NCBI GenBank assembly: GCA_943357105.1
Contig: CALRGC010000001.1
Location: 17,045 to 81,044, forward strand
Reading direction: 5' to 3'
Length of the DNA: 64,000 nucleotides
From: Candidatus Magasanikiibacteriota bacterium
GTDB lineage: Bacteria > Patescibacteriota > Patescibacteriia > Magasanikbacterales > GWA2-37-8
Both the position numbers and the translations under genes were made by a program. Below, one piece after another: positions 3,763-63,850 of the stretch. Each line of letters begins with the position of its first letter. Position 1 is the first letter of the stretch. Under the pieces are notes generated by a model. The model was not told the origin of the DNA and ran no database searches. It worked only from the letters and a program-made list of their open reading frames with translations.

Positions 3763-3784
3763 AGTGTGTTCAAGTATCACGCCT

Positions 3785-9438: not shown

Positions 9439-9476
9439 ATTTATCATTTCATAAATATTTTAATCTCTCTCGCCTG

Positions 9477-9596: not shown

Positions 9597-9597
9597 A

Positions 9598-16976: not shown

Positions 16977-16987
16977 ATTTTTAAAAT

Positions 16988-17152: not shown

Positions 17153-17155
17153 ATT

Positions 17156-22071: not shown

Positions 22072-22194
22072 CGGGCCTCTCCGCCGCTGTTCCTTGCGGG
22101 CAACCGCAGCAGGGCGTTGCGGTTCTCCTCCAGACCGTTCGCCTTCGCTATCTGCAAACAAATTTTGTTTTCAGATAGCGCGAACGATCTCTTA

Positions 22195-22229
22195 TAAAAA
22201 CATCCCTATTTCATAGGGATGTTTTTTTT
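22195..22229. terminator. bidirectional intrinsic terminator (catccctat-ttc-atagggatg with A- and T-tracts)
   Basis: Perfect 9-bp stem between an A-tract and a T-tract. Confidence 0.7.
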
Positions 22230-28412: not shown

Positions 28413-28424
28413 AAAACTAAAAAC

Positions 28425-28466
28425 AAAAACACCTCGGAAAAAATTTCGAGGTGTTTTTAATTTTCT
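28425..28466. terminator. bidirectional terminator between the convergent doxX-like and ABC-F genes
   Basis: acacctcg...cgaggtgt stem between A- and T-tracts. Confidence 0.65.
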
Positions 28467-32944: not shown

Positions 32945-33566
32945 TATGTCTTTTCACGCGGTAAAATTTCAGACAAAAATACTTTATCGCGCCACGCCGC
33001 AAGACAAGCGCATTGATGAAATTCGTAAATGGGCGAAAATTTTTCATGCTAATAATCTAACGCCAATCATTGAAAGTAATATTTCTTGTGGCAATCTCAG
33101 TTTTCGTATCAATCCCGGTGAGAATAAATTTATTATTACCTGCTCTCAAATGGGTTTTAATAAAGAGCTGTCCGAAGATGCTTTTGCTCAAGTTTTTGAT
33201 TGTAATTTTGAACAGGGCGTAGTGTTTGCACTGGGCGAACGTGAGCCGTCTTCCGAAAGTATGTTGCATTTTGCTATCTATAAATCGCGTCCCGAAGTGA
33301 ACGCGATTTTTCATGGCCACAGTGCGAAAATTTTGGAAAATTATTCCTCACTAAAATTAGTAGAGACGGTCAAGGAACAACCTTACGGCACACCGGAGCT
33401 AGCTTTCGAAGTTTTAGATGTTTTGAAAGATAATAATTTTGTAGTAATGAAAAACCACGGATTTGTATCCGTGGCTGAGACGATGGATGAAGCCGGAAAT
33501 GGAACCTTAAAAATTTTGTTTGATATTTATTCTCCTTCAAATTCTACCAGCGCAAAAGTTTTGTAG
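32937..33566 (+). CDS. class II aldolase/adducin-family protein (methylthioribulose-1-phosphate dehydratase-like)
   Basis: 209 aa; His-rich metal site AIFHGHS; 8-nt overlap with mtnA. Confidence 0.65.
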   Translation: MFNMSFHAVKFQTKILYRATPQDKRIDEIRKWAKIFHANNLTPIIESNISCGNLSFRINPGENKFIITCSQMGFNKELSEDAFAQVFDCNFEQGVVFALGEREPSSESMLHFAIYKSRPEVNAIFHGHSAKILENYSSLKLVETVKEQPYGTPELAFEVLDVLKDNNFVVMKNHGFVSVAETMDEAGNGTLKILFDIYSPSNSTSAKVL

Positions 33567-35078: not shown

Positions 35079-35113
35079 AAAAACAAAAAAACCGTCGCAA
35101 GACGGTTTTTTTG
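35079..35113. terminator. bidirectional terminator (accgtc-gcaa-gacggt) between tRNA and hup
   Basis: A-tract / stem / T-tract. Confidence 0.7.
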
Positions 35114-35123
35114 TTTAATTTTT

Positions 35124-35405
35124 TTAGCTAGCTTTGAGCGCGTCTTTCAAAGCTTTACCAGCCTTGAATTTTGGCACTTTCACCGCAGGAATTTGAATTT
35201 TTTCAGTTGGCTTTTGTGGGTTGACACCAGTGCGAGCGGCGCGAGTCTTGGCGCTAAAAGCACCAAAACCAGTGAGCACCACTTCGTCACCTTTTTTCAA
35301 AGTGGCGATAGTGAGATCCACAAAAGCGTTGATCATGTCTTCGGCTTCACGCTTGGAGACATTTAATTTTTCGGATAGTGCTTGAGCTAATTCAGCTTTG
35401 TTCAT
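35124..35405 (-). CDS. hup: HU-family DNA-binding protein
   Basis: 93 aa; HU fold (GFGAFSAKTRAARTGVNPQ). Confidence 0.9.
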   Translation of the reverse strand: MNKAELAQALSEKLNVSKREAEDMINAFVDLTIATLKKGDEVVLTGFGAFSAKTRAARTGVNPQKPTEKIQIPAVKVPKFKAGKALKDALKAS

Positions 35406-35430
35406 ATTATTTAAATTTATTAATTACAGA

Positions 35431-35533
35431 GTAACAGGGAGGCAAATTACTTTTGAGCGGGTTATGAGGCCAAGCCTCATCCTTTCGCCCTCGCGGGCGA
35501 AAAAAGCGAAAAAGTCATTTGCCTCACTGTTAC
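35431..35533. repeat. Structured repeat family 3, copy 1: ~57 bp GC-rich core with two short hairpins inside a copy-specific ~24-bp inverted repeat
   Basis: Core gagcgggttatgaggccaagcctcatcctttcgccctcgcgggcgaaaaaagcgaaaa is identical in 47331-47388; flanks gtaacagggaggcaaattactttt / aaaagtcatttgcctcactgttac. Confidence 0.75.
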
Positions 35534-35599
35534 GAAACTATTATATCATAGCAACCATTTTTTCGCTACAATAGGCGATAATCACTTTTCCACAGCTCT

Positions 35600-37126
35600 T
35601 TAGCGAGCGTATTCGATGATACGAGATTCGCGAATAACATTGATGCGAATTTCACCAGGGTATTGTAAATCTTCCTCCACTTTGTGAGCGATATCTTTGG
35701 CCAACTGATAGGCGCCGTAGTCATCAATTTCATTTGGTTTGACAAACACACGCACTTCACGACCAGCCTGGATAGCATAAACTTTGTCGATACCCGGGAA
35801 GGACATGGCGGTTTTTTCTAATTCTTCCAGACGAGCCACAAATTGCTCCACGCTGTCGCGACGAGCGCCAATGCGAGCGCCAGAGATAGCGTCAGCGGCT
35901 TTGGCAATACAAGCGTAGATGCTTTGGGGTTTGTCCAAATGGTGATCGCGAGCGGCTTGGCAGACATCATCATCAATATTGAATTTTTTCAAAATCGCGT
36001 AGCCCACTTCCGGATGCGAACCTTGAGTTTCTTGATCCACGGCTTTTCCAATATCGTGGAAGAAGCCGGCCTTTTTGGCTTTGGATTGATCCAGACCTAA
36101 TTCAGCGGCCATGATACCGGCGAGATAACCAGTTTCCATCGAATGATTCATAATATTTTGGCCATAGCTGGTGCGATATTTCAGACGACCAACAATGCTG
36201 ACCAATTTTGGATCAATACCCACGATGTTCATTTTGTATAGAGCTTCTTCACCGGCCTTTTTGATCGCCAAAGCTAAATCTTGTTTGGCTTTTTCGACAA
36301 ACTCTTCGATACGAGCCGGCTGAATGCGGCCGTCGGCCATTAATTTTTCCAAAGCCAAACGAGCGACTTCGCGACGAATTGGGGAGAAACAAGAAATAAT
36401 AATAGATTCTGGAGTGTCATCAATTACAATTTCACAACCAGTAAGTTTTTCGATAGTTTTAATGTTGCGGCCTTCTTTACCGATGATGCGGCCTTTCATC
36501 TCTTCGCTTGGCAGATGAATTACCGAACCGGTAGTTTCAGCGGAATGAGAAGAAGCGGTGCGCTGGATCGCTTCGGTCATGAGGTTGCGAGCTTTTTCTT
36601 CGTAATGTTCAGTGGCTTCTTTTTCTAATTTAGAAATACGAGCGTAGAGATCAATTTTACTTTCTTCCTCCACAATAGCGAGCAATTCCAATTTGGCTTC
36701 TTCTCTGGTGAGACCGGCCAATTCCGTCAATTTTTCGGTCTGCTGAACTTTGAGGTTTTCTACCTCTTGTTTAATGGCCTTTACTTTCTCTACCTTTTCT
36801 TGAAGTTTATTTTGACTGTCTTGAAACTCTAACAATTTTTGATCAAACATCGTTTCACGTTTTTCCAAACGCTCTTGGGCGTTGTGGGCTTCGGCGCGAA
36901 TCTGTTTTTCTTCGGCCTTGGCTTCGTCGATAATTTTTTGGGCTTTTTCTTTACCTTCGATGACCAATTCCTGTTGTTTGGTCTTGGCCTCGGTAATCAT
37001 TTTTTCCGCTTTGGCCTCGATGGAGTTGGCCTGGGCCTGGGCGAATTTTTTGCGTAAAAAATATCCGCAGAAGCCGCCAACTATCGTCGCCACTAGGGCC
37101 ACGGCCAGCATAATTAATGAATTCAT
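35600..37126 (-). CDS. rny: ribonuclease Y
   Basis: N-terminal TM, coiled coil, KH and HD domains (FFHDIGKA). Confidence 0.9.
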   Translation of the reverse strand: MNSLIMLAVALVATIVGGFCGYFLRKKFAQAQANSIEAKAEKMITEAKTKQQELVIEGKEKAQKIIDEAKAEEKQIRAEAHNAQERLEKRETMFDQKLLEFQDSQNKLQEKVEKVKAIKQEVENLKVQQTEKLTELAGLTREEAKLELLAIVEEESKIDLYARISKLEKEATEHYEEKARNLMTEAIQRTASSHSAETTGSVIHLPSEEMKGRIIGKEGRNIKTIEKLTGCEIVIDDTPESIIISCFSPIRREVARLALEKLMADGRIQPARIEEFVEKAKQDLALAIKKAGEEALYKMNIVGIDPKLVSIVGRLKYRTSYGQNIMNHSMETGYLAGIMAAELGLDQSKAKKAGFFHDIGKAVDQETQGSHPEVGYAILKKFNIDDDVCQAARDHHLDKPQSIYACIAKAADAISGARIGARRDSVEQFVARLEELEKTAMSFPGIDKVYAIQAGREVRVFVKPNEIDDYGAYQLAKDIAHKVEEDLQYPGEIRINVIRESRIIEYAR

Positions 37127-37388
37127 ATATAAAAAATCTTTCAGAGTGAACTGAAAGACAGCATTTTGCCACTACTTGGCAAAAAAGGAAGAATTTTTGG
37201 TGGAAGATTACAAATTACTCGTTGGCACGAGTAGCACTTAAGTGAGGAAGGAAAAAGTCGATTTTGAAGCGATATTTTCGGTCAATCCAGCCGATAAAAT
37301 GTTGAAATTTGTAGTCATCTTAGCCAAATTTTATTATTTCTCCCAAACGCTGTTTTTGCAGTCAGCTCAGTTGTTATTTAAGTGCTTT

Positions 37389-37417
37389 TATAATAGCACA
37401 AATTGGGTAAAATGTCA
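37389..37417 (-). promoter_or_regulatory. consensus promoter TTGACA-17-TATTAT about 290 nt upstream of rny (long structured leader)
   Basis: Reverse complement reads ttgacattttacccaatttgtgctattat. Confidence 0.45.
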
Positions 37418-37418
37418 A

Positions 37419-38099
37419 TCAACCTTTATTTAAAGGTTTTAATTCGATAGCATCTTCAATTTTGTATTCACCGATTTTGGTGCGGCGCAAAGCCGAGCAA
37501 TAGGCGCCAATCCCAAGTTGTTCTCCAATATCATTGGCTAGAGTGCGAATATATGTGCCGGCTGAGCAACTAACTTCTATGATGAGCTCCGGATAAGAGT
37601 AACTTAAAAATTTAATATCAAAAATTGTAATTCTATTTGGTTGGCGCTTAACCTCTTTGCCTTTGCGCGCCAGTTTATAGAGCCGCTGGCCGTTTATTTT
37701 TTTGGCGGAAAACATCGGCGGGAGTTGGTCTTGTTCGCCAATAAAATTTTGTAATACTTTTTTTATATCTTCTAGATCTACTGGTTTGGCATCCGGATAT
37801 TGCATGATAGTGCCGGTGCTATCAAAGGTGTCAGAAGTAGTCCCTAGGCGTAGGGTGGCAGCATATGTTTTTGGCAGATGCGCAAATTCATCTATTTTTT
37901 TGGTATTCTCGCGCCCAATAGCCACAATCAGTAGTCCGGTAGCAAATGGGTCCAGCGTGCCGGTGTGGCCAACTTTTATTTTTTTATTGCCGGTAGCGTA
38001 GCGTAGCTCGGAGCGAATAAAATTCACGGCGTCAAAACTGGTCCAGGTGGCTGGTTTGTCTATGAGCACTAAATCTTTGTTTAAAAATTGACTATTCAT
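37419..38099 (-). CDS. truB: tRNA pseudouridine(55) synthase TruB
   Basis: TruB family (catalytic GHTGTLDPFATGLL). Confidence 0.9.
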   Translation of the reverse strand: MNSQFLNKDLVLIDKPATWTSFDAVNFIRSELRYATGNKKIKVGHTGTLDPFATGLLIVAIGRENTKKIDEFAHLPKTYAATLRLGTTSDTFDSTGTIMQYPDAKPVDLEDIKKVLQNFIGEQDQLPPMFSAKKINGQRLYKLARKGKEVKRQPNRITIFDIKFLSYSYPELIIEVSCSAGTYIRTLANDIGEQLGIGAYCSALRRTKIGEYKIEDAIELKPLNKG

Positions 38100-38104
38100 T
38101 TAAT

Positions 38105-38385
38105 TTGGAAAGGAGGTTGGGACGGCGTGCACGGGAGGAGGGTGCGCACGCCGTCCCTTTGTCAGTTGTCTCGCTGTTGGACGGTCGACGATCCGCGGGG
38201 AGGAGGGTGGGGACGGATCGTGACATGAATTGCACTTTGCGCTCTTTTGTTCCACCGCACGGGCAGAATAGAGGCCAAAGTAGGCTCGGTGGAAGATTGC
38301 AGCAAGCCTGAAACAACATAACATCATATAAATTAGCCTTTATTTTTAGAAAAGTCAACTCTGGGTCAAAGTTTGACTTTTTCAT
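38105..38385 (+). ncRNA. candidate structured element or sRNA: two GC-rich hairpins with near-identical GGGAGGAGGGTG loops, ending in an intrinsic terminator
   Basis: 12-bp stem gggacggcgtgc/gcacgccgtccc with loop acgggaggagggtgc; 8-bp stem acgatccg/cggatcgt with loop cggggaggagggtgggga; aagtcaa...ttgactt stem plus T-tract at 38353-38385. Confidence 0.3.
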
Positions 38386-38415
38386 AAATTTACATTATAA
38401 TAGCCCAATAATAAT

Positions 38416-40399
38416 ATGAATGTTAGTGAATTAGCTAGACAACTCCGAGTCCATCCTGCCAAGCTCCTGCAAATTTTGCCGGAGTTCGGTTTTGATATCG
38501 GCGCGCGCGCCGTAAAAATCGATGATCGGGTGGCGGCGCAAATTCAGCGCGATTGGCGTCGAATAAAATTTGTGCTCGAGGACAGAGAACTAAAAGCCAA
38601 AGAAAAAGAAAAAGAGTTGGAACGTCAAATGCGCAAAGAAAGTGGTGTGGTGGTGGAGATTCCCAATGTTTTGACGGTGCGTGAACTGTCCGATTTGCTC
38701 AATATGCCGATCAATAAGTTGATTTTGGAATTGATGAAAAATGGTATCTTGGCTACTCAAAATGAAAAGATTGATCGGGACTCCGCTTCTTTAATTGCTC
38801 AAGAACTTGGTTTTACTACTTCGGTAAAAAATGAAAATCAAGTCGTGCCAGAAGATACTACTCACTTGGAAAATTTAGAAAAAATATTATCCAGCAGTGC
38901 CGATACCGCTCGCCCGCCAGTAGTAGTGGTGATGGGCCATGTAGATCATGGTAAAACCAAATTATTGGATTCGATTCGTAGTGCCAATGTGATGGCTAGT
39001 GAAGCCGGTGGTATTACTCAGCATATTGGCGCGTACCAAGTAATTTGGAATAATCCAAAAACCAAAGAAAAATCTCCACTTACTTTTATTGATACTCCAG
39101 GCCACGAAGCTTTTACCGTGATGCGTAGCCGTGGCGCCAAGGTGGCCGATATCGCGATTCTCGTAGTTGCCGCTGATGATGGTGTGAAACCTCAAACTGT
39201 AGAAGCGATCAATATTATTAAGGCTGCCAAATTACCGGTAGTCGTAGCCATAAACAAAATTGATAAACCAGGTGCTGACGTGCAGAAAGCCAAAAGTGAA
39301 TTATCAACACATAATTTAATTCCCGATGATTGGGGTGGCGATGTGCCGATGGTAGAAATTTCCGCTAAAGAAAATTTGAATATTGATAAATTGCTCGATA
39401 CTATTTTATTGGTGGCGGAATTAAATGCTGTGACTATTAAAGCCGATGCTACTCGTGCCGCCGCCGGTACCGTAATCGAAGCCCATGTTGACAAAGGCCA
39501 AGGCCCAGTGGCGACTGTATTGGTGCAAACCGGTACTCTGAAAGTAAATGATCCGCTTGTAGTGAACGGTGAAATTTACGGCAAAGTGCGCGCGATGAAA
39601 AATTATCGCGGTGATGATATGAAAACCGCCACTCCTAGTACGCCGGTGAGAATTCTTGGTTTTAAATTAGCACCTCGCGTGGGAGATGTGCTGGATGTCG
39701 GTAGTGTTGATAGCGCGTCAGAAATTAATCTGAAAAATAAACGCGTACAAAATACCGGCGCCGAACAACGTCCGCTGGCCTCTACCGGTGACACCGAAGC
39801 GGATGAAGCGCGCAAAACTTTTAATATTGTTATCAAGACCGATGTGCTCGGATCGCTTGAAGCCATTACCGCCTCGCTCGAAAAAATGAAAAATGATGAA
39901 GTTAGTGTGAAAGTGGTTGGCAAAGGTTTGGGCCACGGGCGCGCAAGTTTTTGGTTTTAATGTTACCACCAGCTCCCTGGCTAATGAGATGATGGGCAAT
40001 ACCGGCGTCCAATTCAAACAGTTCAAAATTATCTATGACCTTTTTGATTATGTCAAAGAAGAGTTGGAAAAACTTTTGAATCCGGAATTAATTATCACCG
40101 AATTGGGTAATATCAAAATCATGGCTATCTTCCGCACGGAAAAAGGCCATATGATCGTCGGTGGTCGCGTGGAAATGGGCAAACTGCAAAAAGATTGCAA
40201 AGTGCGCGTGAAACGCAATAAAGAAATTATTGGTAAAGGCGCCCTGTCTCATCTGCAGACCGGTAAACAAGAAGTAAAAGAAATTCCTGAAGGCACGGAA
40301 TGCGGTGTACAGTTTGATGGTAAGCTGAGACTTGAAGTTGGGGATGTGCTCGAAGCGTATAAGGAAGAGAAGAAAGAAAAGAAATTGGTTTTGAGCTAA
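38416..40399 (+). pseudogene. infB: translation initiation factor IF-2 with the reading frame broken near 39925-39950 (roughly 29 nt missing)
   Basis: ORF 38416-39960 (G domain VVVMGHVDHGKT) and ORF 39917-40399 (IF-2 C-terminus AQVFGFNVTTSS) are in different frames. Confidence 0.8.
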
Positions 40400-40430
40400 A
40401 ATTATTTAAATACTTTTAATTTCTTATAAT

Positions 40431-40751
40431 ATGGAACACACATTTACTGACGCAAATTTTAAAGCTGAAGTTTTGGAAAGCAAAACTCCGGTGTTTGTGG
40501 ATTTTTGGGCACCATGGTGCGGACCTTGTCAGATGATGGGGCCGATTGTGGAAGAATTGGCCAAAGAATTGGACGGCAAAAATATTAAAATCGGCAAATT
40601 GAATGTGGATGAAAACAATGACACCTCGACTGCCTACAGCGTGATGAGTATCCCAACTTTCTTGATATTCAAAGGTGGGGAAGTGGTGGATCAGATTACC
40701 GGTGGTGTGCAGAAGGAAAAATTGAAAGAAATGATGGCAAAGTATCTGTAA
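40431..40751 (+). CDS. trxA: thioredoxin
   Basis: WAPWCGPCQMM. Confidence 0.9.
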   Translation: MEHTFTDANFKAEVLESKTPVFVDFWAPWCGPCQMMGPIVEELAKELDGKNIKIGKLNVDENNDTSTAYSVMSIPTFLIFKGGEVVDQITGGVQKEKLKEMMAKYL

Positions 40752-40759
40752 AATTAAAA

Positions 40760-40797
40760 TAAAAAACACTCGAATATTCGAGTGTTTTTTATTTTTT
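40760..40797 (+). terminator. intrinsic terminator after trxA
   Basis: acactcgaatattcgagtgt palindrome plus T-tract. Confidence 0.7.
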
Positions 40798-40842
40798 CTA
40801 GCCATTGCTATGTAACAAAAATTTAGGTAAAATAACCCCGCT

Positions 40843-43800
40843 ATGAAAGACTTTGTCCACCTCCACGTTCACTCCCATTATTCGCTTCTCGAAGGTTTGC
40901 CAAAAGTGGCTGACCTGGTAAAAGCCGCCAAAAAGCGGGGTTTTTCGGCGTTGGCGCTCACCGACCACGGTAATATGTATGGGGCAATTGAGTTTTATCA
41001 GGAGTGTGAAAAAAATGGGATAAAGCCGATTATTGGTACCGAAGTTTATGTGGCGGCCAAAAGTCACCTTGATAAAGACGAACATGAAAATTATTCACGC
41101 TTGATTTTGCTCGCGATTGATAACGTCGGTTACCACAATCTTATTACGCTTACTTCGATTGCTCAGACTGCCGGTTTTCATCTCAAACCGCGGGTCGACA
41201 AAGAATCATTAAAAAAATATCACAGCGGGATTGTGGCACTGTCGGGTGGATTTGATGGTGAGATTGCTATAGCCTTGCGCAAAGAAAATAATTTAGATAA
41301 AGCCAAAAAATTAGCTTTGGAATATAGAGATATTTTTGGTGAAGATAATTTTTATTTGGAATTAATGGATCTGCCGGCGCGCGAAGGTCAGACGGAATTA
41401 AATTCATCCTTGATTGAACTAGGACAAGAAACCGATGTGCCATTAGTAGTCACGCGCGATGTTCATTATTTGGATCTGGACGATGCCGAAGCGCAAGATG
41501 TGCTTACTTGTATTCGTGATGGAAAAAATGTCGAAGATGTGAATCGTTATTCCATGGTGGGCGTAGATTATTCGCTCTGTGATGGTGATGATATTGCCAG
41601 CCGATTTTCTCATATTAAAATTGCTTTAGAAAATACTGCGAAAATTGCGGCGCGGGCCAATATAAAATTGGAATTAAACAAATGGCATTTTCCTCATATT
41701 GATCTGCCAGTTGGCAAAAATGCCGATCAATATTTGAGCGATTTGGTCTATGAACGCCTAACCAAATTAATTGAGATTAATGATGCGGTGCGTGAAAGAG
41801 TGGAATATGAATTAGGGATTATTGCTACCAAAGGATACTCCCCATATTTTATCGTGGTGGCGGATTATGTAAATTACGCGCGCGATAATGGTATTGTTGA
41901 AACGACTCGTGGCTCCGGTGCCGGTTCAATTGTGGCCTATGCGATGGGCATTACGACCGTTAATCCGCTTTTTTTCAAATTACCATTTGAGCGTTTTCTC
42001 AATCCTTATCGTCCCAGCGCTCCCGATATTGATGCGGACTTTGCCGATGATCGCCGTGATGAGATGATCGCTTATGTAACCAAAAAATATGGCGCCGATA
42101 AGGTCGCCCAGATTATTACTTTTGGTACGATGGCGGCGCGCGGCGCTATTCGTGATGTTGGTCGCGCACTCGGGTATTCTTATTCTTTTTGTGATCAGGT
42201 TTCCAAGATGATACCCATTGGTGCTCAAGGTTTTCAGATGACTTTGGACAAAGCTTTGAATTTGGAAAAAGATCTGATGGAGCTGTATAAAAAAAATCCT
42301 CAGGTACAAAGATTAATTGATCTGGCCAAAAAAATTGAAGGTTGTGCCCGTCATACTTCAATGCACGCGGCCGGGGTAGTAATTTCGCCAACCCCGCTGA
42401 CTGATTTTACTCCGGTGCAATACGAAACCGGTGGTGATAAAATTACTACCCAATATGAAATGCACGCGGTGGAGGCGGCTGGTCTGCTCAAGATGGATTT
42501 CTTGGGTATTCGCAACTTGTCAATTTTGGGTCGCGCGGTGGAAATCGTGGAAAAAACTACCGGAAAGAAAATAGATATTTTTCAAATTCCTTGGGATGAT
42601 CAAAAAACTTACGATATGTTATCGCGCGGTGAGACCAATAGTGTGTTTCAACTTGCCGGTTCGGGTATTACCCGCTATCTCAAAGAACTAAAACCATCTT
42701 CGATTTTTGATATCACCGCCATGGTGGCGCTGTTTCGCCCTGGTCCAATGGAACAGATTCCAGAATACATTCGTCGTAAACATCATCCGGAAATGGTAGA
42801 TTATCTAGATCCGCGCATGAAAGAATATTTGGATCAATCTTTGGGTTTGATCGTGTATCAAGACGATGTGTTGCTTACTTCTATTCATCTGGCCGGCTAC
42901 AATTGGGAAGAAGCCGATAAATTCCGCAAAGCCATGGGCAAAAAAATTCCCGAAGAGATGGCCAAGCAAAAAGAAAAATTTGTGAAAGGCTGTCGGGAGT
43001 TTGGAAAATTACCGGAAGCCAAAATCCATCTATTATGGGAAATGATCGAGCCGTTCGCGGCCTATGGTTTTAACAAAGCGCACGCGGCCAGCTATGGCGT
43101 AGTGGCCTACCAGACCGCTTATCTGAAGGCCAATTTTCCGGTGCAATATATGACCGCGGTGCTGATAGCGGAAAGTGGGGATATGGATAAAGTGCCGGAA
43201 ATTATTCGCGAATGTGAACGCATGGGAGTAAAAGTTTTGCCGCCAGATATCAATGAAAGTTTGAAAACTTTCGCGATGATTGGTTGGGAAAACGGTGGTA
43301 ATGCCCATATTCGTTTTGGTCTTAGTGGTATAAAAAATTTGGGTGAACATATTGCTGAGGCAATTTATCGCGAACGCAAAGACAATGGACGCTATTTCGA
43401 TCTCACCGATTTTCTTCAGCGTGTTCAGCATAAAGATCTTAATAAAAAGTCACTAGAAAGTTTGATTAAATGTGGTGCCTTGGATTGTTTTGGATTTGAT
43501 CGCGGCGTGCTTTTGGCCAATACCGAAAATTTATTATATTTTTCCAAAAATTTTGGCGAACAAAAAAGAACTTCACAAAATTCTCTTTTTGCCGGTACTG
43601 GAATTGATTTTTCTTCCAAGCTCCATTTAAACAAAGCACCCAATGCCACTCAAGATGAAGTGCTGATTTGGGAAAAAGAGTTACTGGGACTGTATGTCAC
43701 TGCCCATCCATTTGCGCCATTAGCAGCCCAGTTATCAGCCTGTTTAACCGATATTAAAGATTTGGGGAGTTATAGTCGCAACGAGTGGATAGTAGTCGGC

Positions 43801-44304
43801 GGCATTATTGATAGTGTAAAGAAAAAAATTACTCGTAGTGGCTCACCGATGAGTTTTGTGACGATTCAGGACACCACTGATCGTCTGGAGCTCTTGGTAT
43901 TTCCGAAAGTTTATGAAAAAACCAAAGAAATTTGGGCTGAAGGTAAGATGGTCGTAGTAGTTGGTAAAACTTCCCAAGAAGAAGGGGATAATAAATTATT
44001 TGTAGAGAAGGCTTATGCTTTGACTCTCGAGAACGCGGCTCAACTAGCTTCGCAATTGGGCGATGGAAAGAAAAATTCTATTCGCCAGTATGTGTCTCCA
44101 GAATTGTCGGAAAAGACCTTTGAAATCAGCATTACCGCCGATTATCTCAAAGCAAAAGCTGATGATATCAAAGCTTTGTTGGCTTCGGTCCCGGGAGATG
44201 AGGCCGTATATTTGGTAGTAGGGCAGAAAAAAATAAAAACTTCTTATAAAATAAAAACTTCTCCTGAGTTTCAAGAGAAGTTAAGGATTATTTTAGACAG
44301 TTAA
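40843..44304 (+). CDS. dnaE: DNA polymerase III alpha subunit
   Basis: 1153 aa; PHP domain (HLHVHSHYSLLEG); pol III alpha core; OB fold. Confidence 0.95.
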   Translation: MKDFVHLHVHSHYSLLEGLPKVADLVKAAKKRGFSALALTDHGNMYGAIEFYQECEKNGIKPIIGTEVYVAAKSHLDKDEHENYSRLILLAIDNVGYHNLITLTSIAQTAGFHLKPRVDKESLKKYHSGIVALSGGFDGEIAIALRKENNLDKAKKLALEYRDIFGEDNFYLELMDLPAREGQTELNSSLIELGQETDVPLVVTRDVHYLDLDDAEAQDVLTCIRDGKNVEDVNRYSMVGVDYSLCDGDDIASRFSHIKIALENTAKIAARANIKLELNKWHFPHIDLPVGKNADQYLSDLVYERLTKLIEINDAVRERVEYELGIIATKGYSPYFIVVADYVNYARDNGIVETTRGSGAGSIVAYAMGITTVNPLFFKLPFERFLNPYRPSAPDIDADFADDRRDEMIAYVTKKYGADKVAQIITFGTMAARGAIRDVGRALGYSYSFCDQVSKMIPIGAQGFQMTLDKALNLEKDLMELYKKNPQVQRLIDLAKKIEGCARHTSMHAAGVVISPTPLTDFTPVQYETGGDKITTQYEMHAVEAAGLLKMDFLGIRNLSILGRAVEIVEKTTGKKIDIFQIPWDDQKTYDMLSRGETNSVFQLAGSGITRYLKELKPSSIFDITAMVALFRPGPMEQIPEYIRRKHHPEMVDYLDPRMKEYLDQSLGLIVYQDDVLLTSIHLAGYNWEEADKFRKAMGKKIPEEMAKQKEKFVKGCREFGKLPEAKIHLLWEMIEPFAAYGFNKAHAASYGVVAYQTAYLKANFPVQYMTAVLIAESGDMDKVPEIIRECERMGVKVLPPDINESLKTFAMIGWENGGNAHIRFGLSGIKNLGEHIAEAIYRERKDNGRYFDLTDFLQRVQHKDLNKKSLESLIKCGALDCFGFDRGVLLANTENLLYFSKNFGEQKRTSQNSLFAGTGIDFSSKLHLNKAPNATQDEVLIWEKELLGLYVTAHPFAPLAAQLSACLTDIKDLGSYSRNEWIVVGGIIDSVKKKITRSGSPMSFVTIQDTTDRLELLVFPKVYEKTKEIWAEGKMVVVVGKTSQEEGDNKLFVEKAYALTLENAAQLASQLGDGKKNSIRQYVSPELSEKTFEISITADYLKAKADDIKALLASVPGDEAVYLVVGQKKIKTSYKIKTSPEFQEKLRIILDS

Positions 44305-45816
44305 TTAAGTAATTTTTTTCTCAAACAAGTCTTTTATCCAACTGGTCTTGGAAGTATTGAGAGCGGATTTAATATGGCTTTTGGCCGCGTGAGTTTTGAC
44401 AAATTTGAGCCAATCAGGGCTTGGACCTTTGCGATTTTTATCGGTAATCACATCCACTACGTCACCACTTTTTAAAATTGAATCCAAGCTCACCATCTGA
44501 TCATTTATTTTGGCGCCGTTACATTTATTGCCCACTTCGGTATGAATATGATAAGCAAAATCAATCGGTGTAGCATCTTCGGGCAGATCGATAACATCAC
44601 CTTTGGGAGTAAAGACAAAAATATGATTGCGGAAAAAGTCCACTTTCATCTCTTCTAGGTCTTTGAGATTATTGAGAATATCTTTTTGCATTTTGGCCAG
44701 TTCTTTGGCCCAATTATAATCTTTTCTAGATTGATGATGGCCGCTTTTATCATAATTCCAATGCCCAACCGTGGCTCCGTATTCGGCTTCTTCATGCATC
44801 GCTTTGGTGCGAATTTGAAATTCTACGATTTTACCCTCGTCGCAAAACACAGTAGTATGCAAACATTGATAGCCATTTGGTTTGGGTTGAGCGACATAGT
44901 CTTTGATGCGGCCTTTAAGCGGCGGCCAGAGGCGATGAATAACCCCCAAAGTAGCGTAACAGTCGCCCACATCTTGGACAATAATTCTGACGGCCACAAT
45001 ATCGTAGACATTGTTGATGTCCCAATTTTTGCGGATTAATTTTTTGTATAAACTGTAGAGACTTTTTTCTCGTCCGTGAATATTGATAAATTTTACTTCG
45101 GCGGATTTAGATTCGGTTTCCAATTTTTTCATTATCTTTTCTAGATAAATATTGGTCTCCGCCACTTTTTCTTCACGCATCTGTTTGACCCGCTGGTATT
45201 CTTTTGGTTCCAAATGTTTAAAAGACAGATCTTCGAGCAAACTTTTGAATTCACCCATACCCAAACGATTGGCAATCGGAGCGTATATTTCCATACTCTC
45301 CAGAGCGATGCGTTGGCGTTTTTTTTCGGGCAGAGAATCCAGTGTGCTCAAATTGTGAATACGATCGGCAAATTTGATAATCATCACGCGGATATCTTCG
45401 GCCATGGCCACAAAAAGTTTGCGCAGATTTTCGATATAGCGTTCCATGCCACGATATTTTAATTTGCCCAATTTGGTAATGCCGTTGATCATGTTGGCGA
45501 TATCCGGACCAAAGTTTTTTTCAATTTCTTCCAGAGTGACTTCGGTATCTTCTGGCACGTCATGCATTAAGGCAGCAATAATAATGTTTGGTTCAGCCTG
45601 GATCTGCGACAAGATAAAAGCGGCAATGGTCGGGTGGATAATATATGGTTCGCCGGATTTACGAAATTGACCGCTGTGGGCCGCCGCCGCGAAATCATAA
45701 GCTAGGCGAACAGTTTCAATATCGCTGGCGGTACAATATTTTTTGAGATTGGTTATTAAGTCCTCCAGTGAAGCGGATTTGGGGACATTTAGGTGAGAAA
45801 ATAGTAGCTTATCCAT
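44305..45816 (-). CDS. rel: (p)ppGpp synthetase/hydrolase of the RelA/SpoT family (HD, synthetase and TGS domains; no ACT domain)
   Basis: HD motif HDVPEDT; RelA_SpoT synthetase region; TGS domain. Confidence 0.85.
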   Translation of the reverse strand: MDKLLFSHLNVPKSASLEDLITNLKKYCTASDIETVRLAYDFAAAAHSGQFRKSGEPYIIHPTIAAFILSQIQAEPNIIIAALMHDVPEDTEVTLEEIEKNFGPDIANMINGITKLGKLKYRGMERYIENLRKLFVAMAEDIRVMIIKFADRIHNLSTLDSLPEKKRQRIALESMEIYAPIANRLGMGEFKSLLEDLSFKHLEPKEYQRVKQMREEKVAETNIYLEKIMKKLETESKSAEVKFINIHGREKSLYSLYKKLIRKNWDINNVYDIVAVRIIVQDVGDCYATLGVIHRLWPPLKGRIKDYVAQPKPNGYQCLHTTVFCDEGKIVEFQIRTKAMHEEAEYGATVGHWNYDKSGHHQSRKDYNWAKELAKMQKDILNNLKDLEEMKVDFFRNHIFVFTPKGDVIDLPEDATPIDFAYHIHTEVGNKCNGAKINDQMVSLDSILKSGDVVDVITDKNRKGPSPDWLKFVKTHAAKSHIKSALNTSKTSWIKDLFEKKIT

Positions 45817-45903
45817 AGTTTTAACAATTATTTAATTATATCAGGTTCTTGGCCAATTGCAAACTAAACTTGACAAAACGGCTATTTGGTGTTATATTAT
45901 TAG

Positions 45904-46295
45904 GCGTTTACAGTGGATGATCGTCCCTGACCTAGTCAGGGGAGGAAAGTCCGAACACTTTCTTTGAAAAAAGAAAAAAGGCAGTGGGTAACACCCACCG
46001 GTTTGGCGGCAACGTCAAACAAGGGAAAGCGGCACAGAGACAATACTATCCCAGAGCAATTTGGGAGAAAGGTGAAAAGAATATGGAAGTTCTGACTCTA
46101 GAACAGAGCTACCATATACCGACCGTTGTGAGACGGTCTGGTGCCAAGCCCTGCCTGGGTGCAAGAGCAGCCTATGAGAGAGACATAGGAAAAGTTCGCT
46201 CGCTTGATTTTGGCAGTAATGCCAAAACTAGATAAATGATCGTCACGTCTTGCTAAACACAAGACGTACAGAATTCGGCTTATAACTGTAAACTC
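45904..46295 (+). ncRNA. rnpB: RNase P RNA (bacterial type)
   Basis: P4 halves gaggaaagtccgaac and acagaattcggcttat; P1 pairing gtttacagt/actgtaaac; gggtaacaccc element; terminator follows. Confidence 0.8.
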
Positions 46296-46300
46296 ATCAA

Positions 46301-46330
46301 CCTCGTATCTTCGGATGCGAGGTTTTTGTT
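46301..46330 (+). terminator. intrinsic terminator after rnpB
   Basis: cctcgtatc-ttcg-gatgcgagg plus T-tract. Confidence 0.7.
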
Positions 46331-46374
46331 ATTGTGATATAATTATCATGAATATAATTTTTTACCTAATAAAT

Positions 46375-47301
46375 ATGGAATCTTATTCTTTTGATCACGC
46401 GCAAAAAATCGTGGTCATTGGGGCCGGAGCAGTTGGCGCTACAGTGGCTTACACTTTGATGCTGAAAAATTTAGCCGCGCGCATTGTTTTGATTGATGTT
46501 AATATTCAAAAGCAAGAAGGTGAAGTGATGGATATTGATGATGTTTTAAGTTTTGTGGAAACCGGTTCCATTAGTTCGGGTAATTTTAAAGATGCTATTG
46601 ATGCCGACGTGATTATTTTGACCGCTGGGGCGGCGCAAAAGCCGGGTGAGACTAGGTTGGATTTGATAAATAAAAATAAAACTATAACCAGATCTATTTT
46701 TAAAGAAATTGGAAAATTAAAATCTACCGCCATTGTATTGGTAGTGGCCAATCCGGTAGATATTTTGACTTATTTAGTTCAAGAAGTTTCTGGTTTGGAC
46801 CACAAACGAGTTTTTGGTTCCGGCACCAGTTTGGACACTGCCCGTCTGCGCACGGAAATTTCTAAAGTTTTAAAAGTATCTGCCCAAAATGTTGAAGGTT
46901 ATGTTTTGGGAGAACACGGCGATACCGAGTTTGATGCTTTTAGTACAGTTTCGGTCGGTGGTATTTTGATCAAAGATTTTAAATTGCCTAGAGCCAAATT
47001 GGATGAGATCGAAAGTAAAGTAAAAAATGCAGCTTATGATATTATCAATCGCAAAGGCGCGACTTTTTATGGGATCGCGATGGTAGTGGCCGATATTGTG
47101 GAAGCAATTTTATTTGATCAAAGAAAAATTATGCCTTTGTCGGTAAGGTTAGAAGGTTGGAATGGAATTTCCGGAGTATGTCTAAGTGTTCCTGTCGTGG
47201 TAGGGAGACAAGGAATAGAAAAAGTTTGGCCGGTAAAATTAAATTTTTCCGAAAAAATTCGTCTCAAAAAATCCACCAAGGAAATCAAGAAATTCTTGTA
47301 G
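46375..47301 (+). CDS. ldh: L-lactate/malate dehydrogenase
   Basis: NAD-binding VVIGAGAVGATVAY; LDH/MDH family; TAG stop. Confidence 0.85.
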   Translation: MESYSFDHAQKIVVIGAGAVGATVAYTLMLKNLAARIVLIDVNIQKQEGEVMDIDDVLSFVETGSISSGNFKDAIDADVIILTAGAAQKPGETRLDLINKNKTITRSIFKEIGKLKSTAIVLVVANPVDILTYLVQEVSGLDHKRVFGSGTSLDTARLRTEISKVLKVSAQNVEGYVLGEHGDTEFDAFSTVSVGGILIKDFKLPRAKLDEIESKVKNAAYDIINRKGATFYGIAMVVADIVEAILFDQRKIMPLSVRLEGWNGISGVCLSVPVVVGRQGIEKVWPVKLNFSEKIRLKKSTKEIKKFL

Positions 47302-47305
47302 AATT

Positions 47306-47411
47306 AAAAAACACGGCGCATAGTTACCTTTGAGCGGGTTATGAGGCCAAGCCTCATCCTTTCGCCCTCGCGGGCGAAAAAAGCGAAAAGGTCACTGTGC
47401 GCCGTGTTTTT
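47306..47411. repeat. Structured repeat family 3, copy 2, inserted in the loop of a canonical bidirectional terminator (acacggcgca/tgcgccgtgt with A- and T-tracts)
   Basis: Same core as 35454-35511; flanks aaaaacacggcgcatagttaccttt / aaaggtcactgtgcgccgtgttttt. Confidence 0.75.
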
Positions 47412-47429: not shown

Positions 47430-49268
47430 TTAAACTTCAATAATCACCGGTAAAATCATCGGACGTTTTTCAGTTTTGGTATAGAGAAACTGTCCCACGT
47501 AGTCGCGAATTTTATTGCGAATATTATTGGTATCGGCCCAAGAGAGCGGGTCAGATTCGGTAACAATTTTTTTCACGCGATGACGTAGATCCTCGATCAG
47601 TTCTTTATGCTCTTTGAGGAAGATAAAACCACGAGAAATAATATCTGGATTTTGAACCAATCTTCCACTTTTGGAATCAACGGTAGCGATAATTACCACC
47701 ATACCATCCTCAGCCAATACTTGGCGATCGCGCAAGACGACGTTGGTTTCATCCGATACTCCGAGGCCATCGACAAACACATAGTCAGACGGAATTTTTT
47801 CTTTGGTCAAAGTACCGACACCATTTTGGAATTCCATTACCTGGCCATTGTCAGCAATAAATACATTTTCTTTGGCCATGCCGATAGAGGTGGCGATGCG
47901 GCCGTTATAATGTAATAAGAAGTGGTTGCCGTGAATTGGTACAAAATATTTTGGCGCGACTAAACGCAACATTAATTTTACATCGTCGGCTTTGGCATGA
48001 CCACCAGCATGCACATCCATCATCTGATAATGAATCACTTCGGCGCCACGGCGAAATAGAGTGTCTTTGAGTCTTTGCACCGTGCGTTCGTTGCCCGGAA
48101 TTACCGAAGATGAAAAGACAATCGTGTCACCCGGAATTAATTTGATAAAGCGATGTTCGCCATTGGCGATACGCATCAGGGCGGCATTTTTTTCCCCTTG
48201 AGCGCCGGTACAGATAATCATCGTTTTATTTTTTGGGTAATTATCTAGTTGTTTTAAATCCACGATAGTTTTGGAATTAAATTTCATGTAGCCGAGCTCC
48301 TAGGCGATTTCGATATTATTTTTCATGGAGAAGCCTTCAATGGCCACTACTTTGCCGGCTTTTTCGGCGATTTCGATCATCTGTTTAATGCGCGATAATA
48401 AGGAAGCAAAAGTACCGATGATCAAGCGACCCGGGACTTTTTTGATAATATCTTCTAGATTAGTACCAATTTCTGATTCAGAAATTTGGTGGCCAGGCTG
48501 TGAAGCATTGGTAGAGTCGGAAAGTAAAGCCAGTACGCCTTCGCTACCGATTTTGGCAATCTTTTGCAGATCAGCCGGAGCATCACCAGCTACCGGTTGA
48601 TAGTCAAATTTCCAGTCACCGGTATGAATAATCACACCTTCCGGTGTGCCAACTTTGATACCCATGGAGTCTGGAATATTATGATTGAGATGGAAAAATT
48701 CCACTTCAAAAATACCGAGTTTGAGTTTATTTTCTAAATTAACATTGTGAATAGATAAAGGACGCAGACCCTTGTAGTCTTCTTGGCGTTTTTTGATAAT
48801 GGCGTTGGTCAAAGGCAAGCCGTAAATTGGCGGATAACCCAAAACCGGAATAAGGTGAGGAATTCCGCCGATATGATCGTAGTGACCATGAGTGATAATT
48901 ACCCCGCGGATATTTTTTTCTTTACCTTTAAGGTAGTTCATGTTTGGGATGATGTAATCAATACCAGGCATGTCTTCTTCGGGGAATTGTAAACCCATGT
49001 CGATAATAATAATATCGTCACCGTATTCGAGAATAGTGCAGTTGCGGCCGATTTCTTCCAGACCGCCGACTACCATGACGCGTAATTTTTTTCCAAATGT
49101 AGCTGGAGTCGGAATGGTGGTGCGTACTCTTGGGAAAGAAGGTCCGCGAAAATTTCGCATTGAGTTAAAAGGTTGTGCTCCTTGCGGTTTGGCCGCTGGA
49201 GAATTTGGTGTTCGATTTGGCCGCGCGCTGTTGGCGCTGGCAAACGAACTTCTTGGTTGTGAAATCAT
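47430..49268 (-). pseudogene. rnj: ribonuclease J (MBL/beta-CASP) interrupted by one in-frame TAG codon at 48300-48302
   Basis: ORF 48300-49268 (HGHYDHIGG MBL domain) and ORF 47430-48287 (beta-CASP/C-terminus) are in the same frame, reading ...IEIA-TAG-ELGYMKFNS... Confidence 0.8.
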
Positions 49269-62517: not shown

Positions 62518-63615
62518 ATGAAAACAAAAGATTTTGATTATTTTCTTCCACACGAATTAATCGCGCAATTCCCAGCGGAGCCGCGGGATTCTTCACGGTT
62601 GATGGTGGTGGATAAAAATACTCAGCAGACAAAGCATGAACATTTTTACGATATTATAAATTATTTGCAAGCAGGGGATTTGCTGGTGTGGAATAATTCC
62701 AAAGTTTTTAAGGCGCGTTTGCGGGGAACGATTGAACTGGATGAAAAAACCGCGGATACTAAAATTCCGGCCAATGCCACAGATAAAATTCTCAACGCCG
62801 CTAAGGTAGAAATATTTTTGGTGCGGCCGATGGAAAATTTTGGCGTGTGGAAGGCGCTGGCCAAACCAGGGAGAAAATTGCGCCTGGGAATAAAAATAAT
62901 ATTTGCTAAAGATTTTTTTGCGGAAGTAATTTCCAAAGAGAGTGATGGCACATTTTTATTGCAATTTAAAGATGATGATATGGAAGTGCGCGCTAAAGCC
63001 AATAAGTATGGCGAAGTGCCAACACCGCCATATATTAAATCCGGTGAATTTGCCAATTTGGATAAACGCTATCAGACGGTGTATGCCAAGCACGAAGGCT
63101 CGGTGGCCGCACCCACGGCCGGGTTTCATTTCACACCGGAGCTGATAGAGAAATTAGAAAAAAAGGGAGTGCAGTTTGCTGAAGTAACATTACATGTTGG
63201 ACTCGGTACTTTTATGCCAGTAAAGACTGAGGCAATCGAAGATCACAAAATGCACAGTGAATGGGTAGAGCTATCCGACAAAAATGCGCATCTAATAAAT
63301 AACGCCAAAGCCGAAGGTCGCCGCGTCATCGCGGTCGGCACTACTACTGTGCGCACCGTCGAAGGCTTGGCTCTAAAATTTGCCAAAGATCAGCTTGAAC
63401 CATATCAAGGCGATATAAATATTTTTATCACGCCTGGTTTTAAATTTAAAATGATTGACGCGTTGATTACCAATTTTCATTTACCGCAGTCTACACTTTT
63501 GATGCTCGTTTCCGCTTTTGCTGGTGACAGGGAATTTATGCTCAAATGTTATGAAGAAGCCGTAAAAGAAGAATATCGATTCTTTAGTTTTGGTGATGCG
63601 ATGTTGATAAAATAG
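62518..63615 (+). CDS. queA: S-adenosylmethionine:tRNA ribosyltransferase-isomerase
   Basis: 365 aa; QueA family. Confidence 0.9.
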   Translation: MKTKDFDYFLPHELIAQFPAEPRDSSRLMVVDKNTQQTKHEHFYDIINYLQAGDLLVWNNSKVFKARLRGTIELDEKTADTKIPANATDKILNAAKVEIFLVRPMENFGVWKALAKPGRKLRLGIKIIFAKDFFAEVISKESDGTFLLQFKDDDMEVRAKANKYGEVPTPPYIKSGEFANLDKRYQTVYAKHEGSVAAPTAGFHFTPELIEKLEKKGVQFAEVTLHVGLGTFMPVKTEAIEDHKMHSEWVELSDKNAHLINNAKAEGRRVIAVGTTTVRTVEGLALKFAKDQLEPYQGDINIFITPGFKFKMIDALITNFHLPQSTLLMLVSAFAGDREFMLKCYEEAVKEEYRFFSFGDAMLIK

Positions 63616-63646
63616 AGAAACAAATATTTTTATTGAACGAACCGCT

Positions 63647-63767
63647 GAAAACACGAGGAAATAATTTGTGAGCCGACGAGGCGTGGCTGGCTCTGCTGTT
63701 TGAGGAGCGTCAAGCGACGAATTCAGAGCCAGAGCTTCGGCGGGTTGCAAATTATCCGAGTGTTTTC
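63647..63767. repeat. Structured repeat family 2, copy B (inverted orientation relative to copy A)
   Basis: IR gaaaacacgaggaaataatttg / caaattatccgagtgttttc; core about 80% identical to the reverse complement of 9498-9573, including a compensatory pair change. Confidence 0.7.
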
Positions 63768-63812
63768 ATAGGTGAGTGAGATAAAAATATTTGTTTCTCT
63801 ATTTTTGAGAAT

Positions 63813-63850
63813 AAAAAAATCCCTCGATTTTACTCGGGGGATTTTTAATT
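63813..63850. terminator. bidirectional terminator downstream of rplK
   Basis: ccctcga...tcggggg stem between A- and T-tracts. Confidence 0.55.

Follow-up and report, generated by a model that had tools for sequence, protein, structure and literature searches.

A family of palindromic intergenic hairpin repeats with a conserved apex on variable arms in Magasanikbacteria-type bacteria

The window analysed here, 64,000 nucleotides (nt) of DNA from a Candidatus Magasanikiibacteriota bacterium (GenBank assembly GCA_943357105.1, contig CALRGC010000001.1, positions 17,045 to 81,044 of the forward strand), contains two copies of a structured element that we call Family 3. It is a non-coding, intergenic palindrome of about 100-125 nt, of which about 110 distinct copies were found in 7 species-level metagenome-assembled genomes (MAGs) and about 90 metagenome contigs, all Magasanikbacteria-like. 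We propose with moderate confidence that these are non-autonomous palindromic intergenic repeats, in which the whole hairpin is evolving and movable and an invariant apex is carried on arms that are free in sequence but paired. The family is apparently undescribed in Magasanikbacteria-type bacteria of the candidate phyla radiation (CPR).

The two window copies share 61 identical nt (35452-35512 and 47329-47389), made up of a 58-nt core string and the TTT preceding it. The window contains the core string two times and no more (35455-35512 and 47332-47389, each on the + strand), and none of 100 dinucleotide shuffles has it. An earlier note on this DNA had reported this identical core; it is borne out, with a quoted string that measures 58 nt and coordinates that were one base low. 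The two small hairpins that the note described are present in both copies at matching positions, P2 being ATGAGGC-CAA-GCCTCAT and P3 being TTTCGCCC-TCGC-GGGCGAAA. The covarying ends that it saw (ACTTTT...AAAAGT versus ACCTTT...AAAGGT) are real as well; these positions pair and belong to a longer stem. Each copy lies at the dyad of a palindrome, GTAACAGGGAGGCAAATTAC...GTCATTTGCCTCACTGTTAC in copy 1 and, with an unlike sequence, AAAAACACGGCGCATAGTTACC...GGTCACTGTGCGCCGTGTTTTT(GTTT) in copy 2. Each copy is predicted to fold into a single long stem, at the top of which two GC-rich hairpins branch off from a three-way junction; the + strand has folding energies of -54.4 and -63.3 kcal/mol (z = -7.1 and -8.7 versus shuffles). 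Over the whole window, the covariance model of the family finds just these two copies, at 98 bits each.

In a scan with the left 20-mer of 185,579 genomes, one per species, 16 exact matches were obtained at 15 loci of 8 assemblies, with complete elements in 7 of them. Five of the assemblies are named Candidatus Magasanikbacteria or Magasanikiibacteriota and three 'uncultured Gammaproteobacteria'. A gapped pattern gave 96 further stretches on metagenome contigs and, with three chance matches in coding sequences removed, the patterns yielded 104 distinct copies. The covariance model, built from 92 of the pattern-found copies, returned 112 hits (110 distinct) in the 673 kb of fetched loci, which carry L numbers below; seven copies were found by the model only, the patterns having missed them through differing junction bases. 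The repeat family with a GC-rich twin-hairpin core that had been proposed is borne out. Copy density on long contigs is about one per 30-100 kb, for example five on one 163-kb contig. None of the known sources considered, an insertion sequence (IS) end, a small RNA (sRNA) or an Rfam family, matched the core. With Rfam 15 at gathering thresholds no match to either copy was found in the window, and at E<=10 copy 2 gave only spurious microRNA (miRNA) and sRNA hairpins of at most 19 bits, versus cut-offs of 39-114. Viral contigs gave no match to a 20-mer spanning both hairpins, and no description of such an element was found in the literature on structured RNAs or repeats in Patescibacteria or Magasanikbacteria.

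The anatomy of the element is described on the strand that reads GAGCGGG. Its stem, P1, has an ungapped median of 24 bp, a copy-specific sequence and near-perfect pairing; only the inner 8-10 bp are semi-conserved (...RRTTACY-TTT / AAA-RGTYAYY...), and an irregularity (T.C, T.T or G.T) recurs at the 6th-7th pair below the top. The top of P1 is UUU/AAA, followed by a GAGC/GCGA clamp, in which a tandem G.A accompanies two invariant G-C pairs. Above the clamp there are a G and a GG/CC helix with a UU bulge, leading to P2, which is composed of AUGA, a variable stem and UCAU, or alternatively a 3' strand GAUU that gives a tandem G.A. P3 is UUUYRNCC-UCGC-GGNYRAAA, with the loop UCGC, or alternatively CUGAGGCY...RGCCGAGG, also with a tandem G.A, and an AAA linker joins it back to the clamp. 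At least 52 of 99 copies have an A...G closure at the base of P1, and a GA...GA closure is present in 21 of the 99, with 0.15 expected. P2 variants tend to be genome-specific: the P2 common to the window copies is rare elsewhere, and all four copies of the MAG CAZHYJ01 have one P2, different from that of the window.

All helices covary strongly. In the model-based alignment 94.7% of cells hold standard pairs, versus 73.4% in column shuffles, and pairing falls to 44-49% when partner columns are slid by 1-3. Changes on both sides are found in 27 of 33 pairs, and the covariation score of 0.572 (versus 0.158) was reached by none of 500 shuffles. This alignment was fitted to the structure; an earlier MAFFT/RNAalifold run already had compensatory changes in P1 and P3. 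The metagenome copies are not independent, many being orthologues, and there were fewer events than the counts of cells and mismatches suggest. Four independent copies have Watson-Crick pairs in place of the G.A/A.G of the clamp (two with UUGC/GCAA, one with GAGC/GCUC and one with A-U), which confirms that the clamp bases face each other. A small open reading frame (ORF) starting at the core ATG was ruled out, since the lengths of P2 and P3 vary by non-multiples of 3.

Orthologous spacers were then compared among the fetched loci and the window, with flanking proteins 70-96% identical. Most orthologous sites were filled in both genomes compared, while seven sites, in eleven pairwise comparisons, were filled in one genome and empty in a relative (Table 1). 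At all seven, the empty site is without the element arms. The last two hold ordinary terminators, the stems of which (TCTCGACA and TCCCTCGA) are to be set against the element arms CACCGGGAACAG and CGCCGGTCG. Moreover, L030 and L042, which belong to different orthologous groups, carry identical complete arms, AAAAAACACCGGCAATAATYAC..., between flanks that are unrelated; L093, for which orthology is not established, has them too, and a second arm type is common to L013 and L087. In the rpsG-fusA spacer of L013 and L041 the coding flanks are about 90% identical, the arms wholly different and the orientations opposite. Since empty sites are without arms and the same arms recur at unrelated sites, the unit that is gained, lost and replaced is the whole hairpin. 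The same two observations assign the flanking palindrome to the element, which is in substance what the earlier note had named as evidence that would refute its reading. They lend no support to the idea that the core went into the loop of a terminator or palindrome already in place, as the flanking stem is missing along with the core at all seven sites. Palindrome growth by copying of the local flank was ruled out too, neither arm being found at the empty sites. No direct repeats were visible at the seven sites, where the genomes are too diverged for exact junctions, and the GA...GA flanks mentioned above are better read as tandem G.A closure than as a target duplication.

Besides the coming and going of whole hairpins, cores are swapped between copies and can invert independently of the arms, and to this extent the reading of the earlier note survives. 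The arms and flanks of L059 and L065 are identical and their P2 different, and L088 and L103 have homologous arms with alternative forms of both P2 and P3. Copy 1 of the window differs from its orthologue L057:3473-3558 at one base in arms and flanks and at six or more in P2. Between L002 and L089 the core is inverted, while the arms, asymmetries included, are collinear with the flanking genes; between L069 and L097 the whole unit is inverted, together with about 5 nt on one side and about 15 nt on the other. In the simplest reading, which we infer from these pairs, gene conversion or recombination is frequent, with the conserved junction and the inner arms as the route; since these inner arms are palindromic, a donor could pair in either orientation. 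As regards the window copies themselves, L112 holds a partial copy identical to copy 1, and an exact look-up of the HU protein led to a single 2.3-kb contig that confirms copy 1. The corresponding exact look-up of the LDH protein for closer relatives of the window gave no record; in L021 the orthologous site of copy 2 is filled, but with a different stem.

Table 1. Coordinates of the two window copies, of an ordinary terminator and of the sites filled in one genome and empty in a relative
Feature	Position	Strand	Remarks
Copy 1, whole hairpin unit	35431-35533	+	103 nt; operon-internal form; 98.2 bits by covariance model
Copy 1, closure	35429-35430 and 35534-35535		GA and GA
Copy 1, P1 5' arm	35431-35454	+	GTAACAGGGAGGCAAATTACTTTT; pairs with 35510-35533; one G.A and one T.C mismatch
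Copy 1, P1 3' arm	35510-35533	+	AAAAGTCATTTGCCTCACTGTTAC
Copy 1, conserved core	35455-35509	+	
Copy 1, core parts	GAGC clamp 35455-35458; P2 35464-35480; P3 35483-35502; GCGA clamp 35506-35509		GG/CC and UU bulge before P2; AAA linker after P3
Copy 2, whole hairpin unit	47307-47411	+	105 nt; terminator-like form; 97.7 bits by covariance model
Copy 2, flanking runs	A-run 47306-47311; T-run 47407-47411		T-run followed by GTTT
Copy 2, conserved core	47332-47386	+	same sequence as copy 1 core
Copy 2, core parts	P2 47341-47357; P3 47360-47379; GCGA clamp 47383-47386		GAGC clamp at the start
Ordinary bidirectional terminator, for comparison	35081-35116	+	AAACAAAAAAACCGTCGCAAGACGGTTTTTTTGTTT; AAACAAAAAAA-CCGTC-GCAA-GACGG-TTTTTTTGTTT; 5-bp stem, 4-nt loop
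Site 1	L057, element ~961-1050 (filled) versus window 33512-33530 (empty)		terminator-type element; window has only ...TTAAAAATTTTGTTTGA..., no stem
Site 2	L005 versus window 44301-44314 (~44304)		terminator-type copy in L005; convergent genes abut; alignment poor, gene pair 76-78% identical
Site 3	L027 and L086 versus window ~62.5 kb		
Site 4	L037 versus L084, L079 and L014		
Site 5	L085 versus L070		
Site 6	L001 versus L012		L012 has ordinary terminator, unrelated stem
Site 7	L086 versus window ~63.6-63.85 kb		window has ordinary terminator, unrelated stem

The copies occur in two forms. In about one third of them, copy 2 included, the stem is preceded by an A-run and followed by a T-run, a frequent pattern being AAACAAAAA...TTTTTGTTT; the remaining copies, copy 1 included, are without A/T runs and are closed by GA...GA or A...GT. 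Operon-internal copies fill short spacers between co-directional genes, with their ends typically 5-25 nt from a stop codon on the one side and a start codon on the other, and five of them start with GTAG and end with CTAC, mutually paired. The arms are about 20 bp in both forms, A/T runs not counted. About 10 ordinary terminators were seen in the window, with stems of 5-10 bp, loops of 3-6 nt and the same A-run and T-run-GTTT flanks as terminator-type copies. The G+C-rich stem and direct U-tract of an intrinsic terminator are found in copy 2 and about a third of the family, and the U-tract is missing from copy 1. With its 25-bp stem and apical module of about 55 nt, copy 2 lies outside the range of short-hairpin terminators (stem of about 5-12 bp, loop of 3-8 nt), and in a terminator scan of the window the element was not called. 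Judged from its sequence, the A/T-run form looks like a complete bidirectional terminator, copy 2 being an example, and at the sites that it fills relatives have an ordinary terminator or nothing. Of the earlier claim that copy 2 sits in a terminator loop, the likeness of the whole copy to a bidirectional intrinsic terminator is retained, whereas the core as an insert in the loop is unsupported. As a separate observation, the native terminators of the window (35081-35116, 40756-40795, 22194-22228, 28420-28463, 63813-63850 and others) are stereotyped as (AAAC)A4-7, stem, loop and T4-8(GTTT), their stems often start with CAC, and their common 9-nt flanks could give microhomology for stem-loop exchange.

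The genes that flank the copies were identified with Pfam in the window and by reading translations by eye elsewhere. Copy 1, which follows rny inside its own, different palindrome as had been noted before, lies in the spacer between the stop of the RNase Y gene (35600-37126, - strand) and the start of the HU gene (35124-35405, - strand), antisense to both. Copy 2 stands between the convergent ldh (46315-47301, + strand) and the ORF for the C-terminal part of RNase J (47430-48287, - strand). Taken over the family, the neighbours are unrelated housekeeping genes: rny/hup, ldh/rnj, rpsG/fusA, efp, clpP, prfB, ksgA, queA, pyrE/pyrF, dnaX, lepA, glyA, pyk, gap and ruvC. The window, of about 42% G+C, encodes an RNase P RNA of class A as well as the two RNases Y and J. 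Its RNase J gene (47430-49268, - strand) consists of two ORFs split by a single in-frame TAG (complement of 48300-48302), which could be due to a pseudogene, an assembly error or read-through/recoding. In the IF-2 gene (38416-40399, + strand) the frame is lost near 39950, by a frameshift or sequencing error, and the C-terminal part is in the ORF 39917-40399.

With regard to the hosts, the title 'uncultured Gammaproteobacteria' belongs to the MAGs CAZHYJ01, CAYHBZ01 and CAYZHG01 (L003, L004, L009-L013 and L015). This label is probably wrong for CAYHBZ01, because the proteins flanking the element in L012 are 95-96% identical to those of the Magasanikiibacteriota MAG of L001; for CAZHYJ01 and CAYZHG01 the only sign of mislabelling is that they carry the element. 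In the GC-rich MAG WY5.bin123, L007:5299-5400 has the exact left 20-mer TTTGAGCGGGTTATGAGGCC, followed by GAGCGGGCACGGTTCGAGTCCGCC and a long GC-rich palindrome, and no tRNA was called there. As the left 20-mer alone matches and the continuation differs, L007 was set aside as either a distant relative or a chance match. Another likeness concerns the core: the reverse complement of the commonest consensus, GAGCGGGTTATGAGCC, contains GCTCATAACCCG, which we take to be 12 nt of the anticodon arm of the E. coli initiator tRNA. In the window copies (complement of 35457-35468 and 47334-47345) the sequence is CCTCATAACCCG, with P2 beginning GAGG, and matches GCTCATAACCCG at 10 contiguous nt and 11 of 12 in all. 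The likeness is probably coincidental, since these bases are paired in the element (P2 and the GG/CC pairs).

One particular strand seems to be required to fold. In the outer stem read on the GAGCGGG strand, with symmetric penalties, 39-41 G.U pairs were counted versus 8-9 A.C mismatches, and the bias is the same (10 to 2) in copies antisense to both neighbours. This strand folds better in 75 of 99 copies, by a mean of 3.1 kcal/mol that comes entirely from the arms; for the core alone the opposite strand has a slight advantage, its P3 loop being GCGA, a GNRA tetraloop. Orthologous pairs such as L019/L071 have double compensatory changes and G.U intermediates, though both flanking genes are on the other strand. 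Counted with longest-ORF gene calls, 33 copies run antisense to both of their neighbours and 13 run sense, while 27 lie between convergent genes and 8 between divergent ones, copy 1 being scored as 'upstream gene sense' through a spurious 122-aa ORF overlapping hup. There was no replication-strand bias (16 copies with positive versus 21 with negative replication-type GC skew, read in the frame of the element and corrected for gene strand, the raw skew being dominated by gene orientation). The strand that folds is thus not to be equated with the mRNA strand or with the lagging-strand template. We do not choose among three possibilities, namely an RNA made on its own, an intermediate of single-stranded DNA, and selection that acts mainly while copies propagate.

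Several points weigh against the interpretation of the family as movable repeats. No transposase was found in the loci covered, nor a target-site duplication or an autonomous relative, mobility being read from comparative patterns only; in search of such a relative, the left 20-mer scan of the 185,579 genomes returned small complete elements and the partial match of L007. [quoted passage not shown] Many copies are kept at orthologous sites (flanking proteins 70-95% identical) with compensatory stem changes, which points to in-place selection, needless for a purely selfish element, and gain may not always be distinguishable from loss. The folding-favoured strand is absent from the mRNA in 33 of 46 co-directional contexts and skew is 16 versus 21, so that neither a simple mRNA-level role nor a simple replication-linked mechanism on single-stranded DNA would fit. 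Finally, the search patterns fixed GAGCGGGTTATGA and AAGCGAAAA, and the invariance of those bases is partly ascertainment; the seven model-only copies show that they are able to change.

Among the other explanations, a host-selected, cis-acting structured RNA that is part of many transcripts, with copies arising only rarely, is unlikely, though the most probable of them. Candidates are a module for 3' ends or for processing, a cap that binds protein on top of a long double-stranded stem, a terminator that acts conditionally and a ribozyme of a new class. Such a role agrees with the strong covariation in all helices, with RNA-like motifs (tandem G.A in up to four places, tolerated G.U, the conserved UCGC loop), with a core far better conserved than its surroundings, with the location about 5-25 nt from stop and start codons, and with orthologous retention accompanied by compensatory changes, for example in L019/L071, L012/L092 and L002/L074. 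However, the orientation to transcription is not fixed (33 antisense versus 13 sense in co-directional contexts), and the folding asymmetry tracks the strand of the element even when that strand is absent from the mRNA. Close relatives differ in whether a whole unit is there, is missing or is replaced, and the housekeeping genes beside the copies have no relation to each other. No promoter is conserved, given flanks that have nothing in common from copy to copy, and a promoter scan beside copy 1 gave nothing above chance. Rfam gave no match at or near a gathering score, the hammerhead, twister, twister-sister, hatchet and pistol families included. The hammerhead core (CUGANGA and GAAA, with a UH site) was ruled out by inspection, as the junction 5' of P2 is GUUAUGA, without C3 and G5, and as the flanking G.A pairs are Watson-Crick in most copies; other three-way-junction ribozymes were likewise rejected on inspection, for want of the core nucleotides.

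We consider it rather improbable that the mobile part is a small core, carrying about 10 bp of inner arm at most, which homes into loops of hairpins that were already there, for the most part intrinsic terminators; differing outer stems would then be differing targets. The outer arms of terminator-type copies (A-run, CAC.../...GTG, T-run-GTTT) do resemble native terminators of the same genome, cores are identical or genome-specific on unrelated arms, and they are swapped or inverted on unchanged arms. But the arms are absent at seven of seven empty sites, although with relatives 70-96% identical in flanking proteins a fast-evolving target hairpin is still conceivable. In addition, identical complete arms stand at non-orthologous sites, operon-internal copies have no terminator features, and, because the arms are about 20 bp in both forms, terminator-type copies are not a native stem of 5-10 bp plus an insert.

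The least probable explanation, and a very doubtful one, is a remnant of a transposon that moves as single-stranded DNA, either a palindrome-associated transposable element (PATE) of IS200/IS605 type or a REPIN-like element mobilised by a REP-associated tyrosine transposase (RAYT), with P2 and P3 bound by a Y1 (HUH) transposase. It would account for the selection on hairpins of one strand independently of transcription, for two small GC-rich hairpins side by side on that strand and for the lack of a visible target duplication. In the two window copies, and in many more, the conserved part has TTAC, the IS608 target, directly on its 5' side. The five operon-internal copies with GTAG...CTAC recall the ends of REP doublets (PMC3733652). 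On the other hand, TTAC varies (TTGTC, ATATTT, TTATG, TCACC) and simply pairs with the opposite arm, by which an IS608-like target was ruled out, and the arms are absent from empty sites. A replication-type GC skew bias is lacking (16 versus 21), and opposite orientations occur within the single loci L001, L027 and L086. P2 and P3 are unlike each other, whereas IS200/IS605 elements have similar hairpins at both ends. No Y1 transposase gene was seen beside any copy, in a survey that covered the neighbourhoods of the copies.

Returning to movable palindromic repeats, we suppose that the element would spread as, or be recognised in, the single-stranded folded form of one strand, with the conserved apex as recognition site of a putative trans-acting factor. 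Recombination would contribute to spread and homogenisation, and the host may tolerate the hairpins or use them as terminators or 3'-end structures. A bolder version, which we put forward as a speculation and think unlikely, makes the three-way junction and the G.A clamps the handle of a trans-acting protein or ribonucleoprotein (RNP) that recognises one folded strand. It would copy hairpin cassettes, ready-made bidirectional terminators included, to new intergenic sites, or act on RNA as a self-cleaving or protein-recruiting 3'-end module, and Family 3 would represent a new CPR-specific class of mobile structured elements with Family 1 as a second member.

Family 1 is found in the window at 3776-3959 and 16976-17164 (element on the - strand). 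It has long arms with a variable outer part and a conserved inner arm, one copy has an A-run and a T-run and the other begins with GA, and a GAGC...GCGA clamp (AAAAGU-GAGC...GCGA-ACUUUU) carries two covarying GC-rich hairpins, the same design as in Family 3. The Family 3 covariance model scores its copies weakly (21.9 and 13.4 bits), and no further Family 1 copies were found in the fetched loci. A third palindromic family, at 9451-9623 and 63607-63805 of the window, has arms of 40-50 nt with about 95 nt between them. Long-hairpin elements of similar appearance, in L056 (~2100-3340) and L090:7601-7835, occupy the very spacers in which other genomes have a Family 3 copy; for this reason, several hairpin families seem to use intergenic spacers as common landing sites.

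CPR bacteria (Patescibacteria) have small, dense genomes, the non-coding elements of which are little known; the family adds a structured, recombining repeat to them, one that appears able to stand in for terminators and that sits inside core operons. Inverted conservation, together with strand-specific folding uncoupled from transcription and replication, points to an undescribed recognition step and possibly to an undescribed mode of spreading. The covariance model provides a marker for Magasanikbacteria, and an RNA/DNA module of about 60 nt is defined.

Compared with known systems, Family 3 shares with bidirectional intrinsic terminators, in copy 2 and about a third of the family, the A-run, the G+C-rich stem base, the T-run and the location between convergent genes. 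It differs from them by a stem of 20-30 bp instead of 5-10 bp, by a structured module of about 55-65 nt instead of a 3-6-nt loop and by operon-internal copies without any U-tract. From IS200/IS605 PATEs it departs in having no fixed 5' target and no replication-strand orientation bias. Integron attC sites are marked by conserved outer R''/R' core sites (RYYYAAC...GTTRRRY), a centre that varies and a context of gene cassettes; here the centre is invariant, the outer stem variable and the neighbours are housekeeping genes.

REP, BIME and REPIN sequences are short GC-rich palindromic intergenic repeats of Proteobacteria with tens of copies per genome (PMC3733652). They are mostly found downstream of genes, between convergent or co-directional genes, are believed to function as hairpins in RNA, as terminators or in stabilising mRNA, and are thought to be mobilised as single strands (PMC3733652). 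Family 3 is likewise a GC-rich palindromic intergenic repeat, some copies of which have GTAG...CTAC. In REPs, however, the repeated palindrome of 20-40 nt is itself conserved and bears an unpaired GTAG/CGTC tag, whereas in Family 3 the stem is free and the apical three-way junction conserved, GTAG being present in about five copies and paired. The host also differs, being a CPR bacterium, and no RAYT was identified in the neighbourhoods of the element.

ERIC and Correia (CREE/NEMIS) elements are imperfect palindromes of 100-150 nt in transcribed intergenic regions, in either orientation, that can supply terminators or processing sites. Family 3 resembles them in lying in either orientation and being present or absent among relatives. 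They have conserved terminal inverted repeats, which are the mark of MITEs, and Correia elements also a TA target duplication; in Family 3 the termini differ between copies, the centre is invariant and no duplication was found. Such MITE-like repeats have been reviewed (PMC3184786, PMC2229807). The GC-rich hairpin elements of AT-rich organelle genomes, that is yeast mitochondrial GC clusters, sponge repetitive hairpin-forming elements and double-hairpin elements, show signs of mobility without an identified transposase, and their spread is attributed to recombination or gene conversion (PMC4478555, PMC2800124). They too are GC-rich single or double hairpins scattered in intergenic DNA, but host and genome type are different, there is no sequence relationship, and they have neither the long variable stem nor the terminator mimicry. 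In a broad sense Family 3 belongs with REP/BIME, ERIC, Correia and organellar hairpin elements (PMC3733652, PMC3184786, PMC2229807, PMC2800124, PMC4478555), and is set apart from them by its inverted pattern of conservation, an invariant apical junction on free but paired arms.

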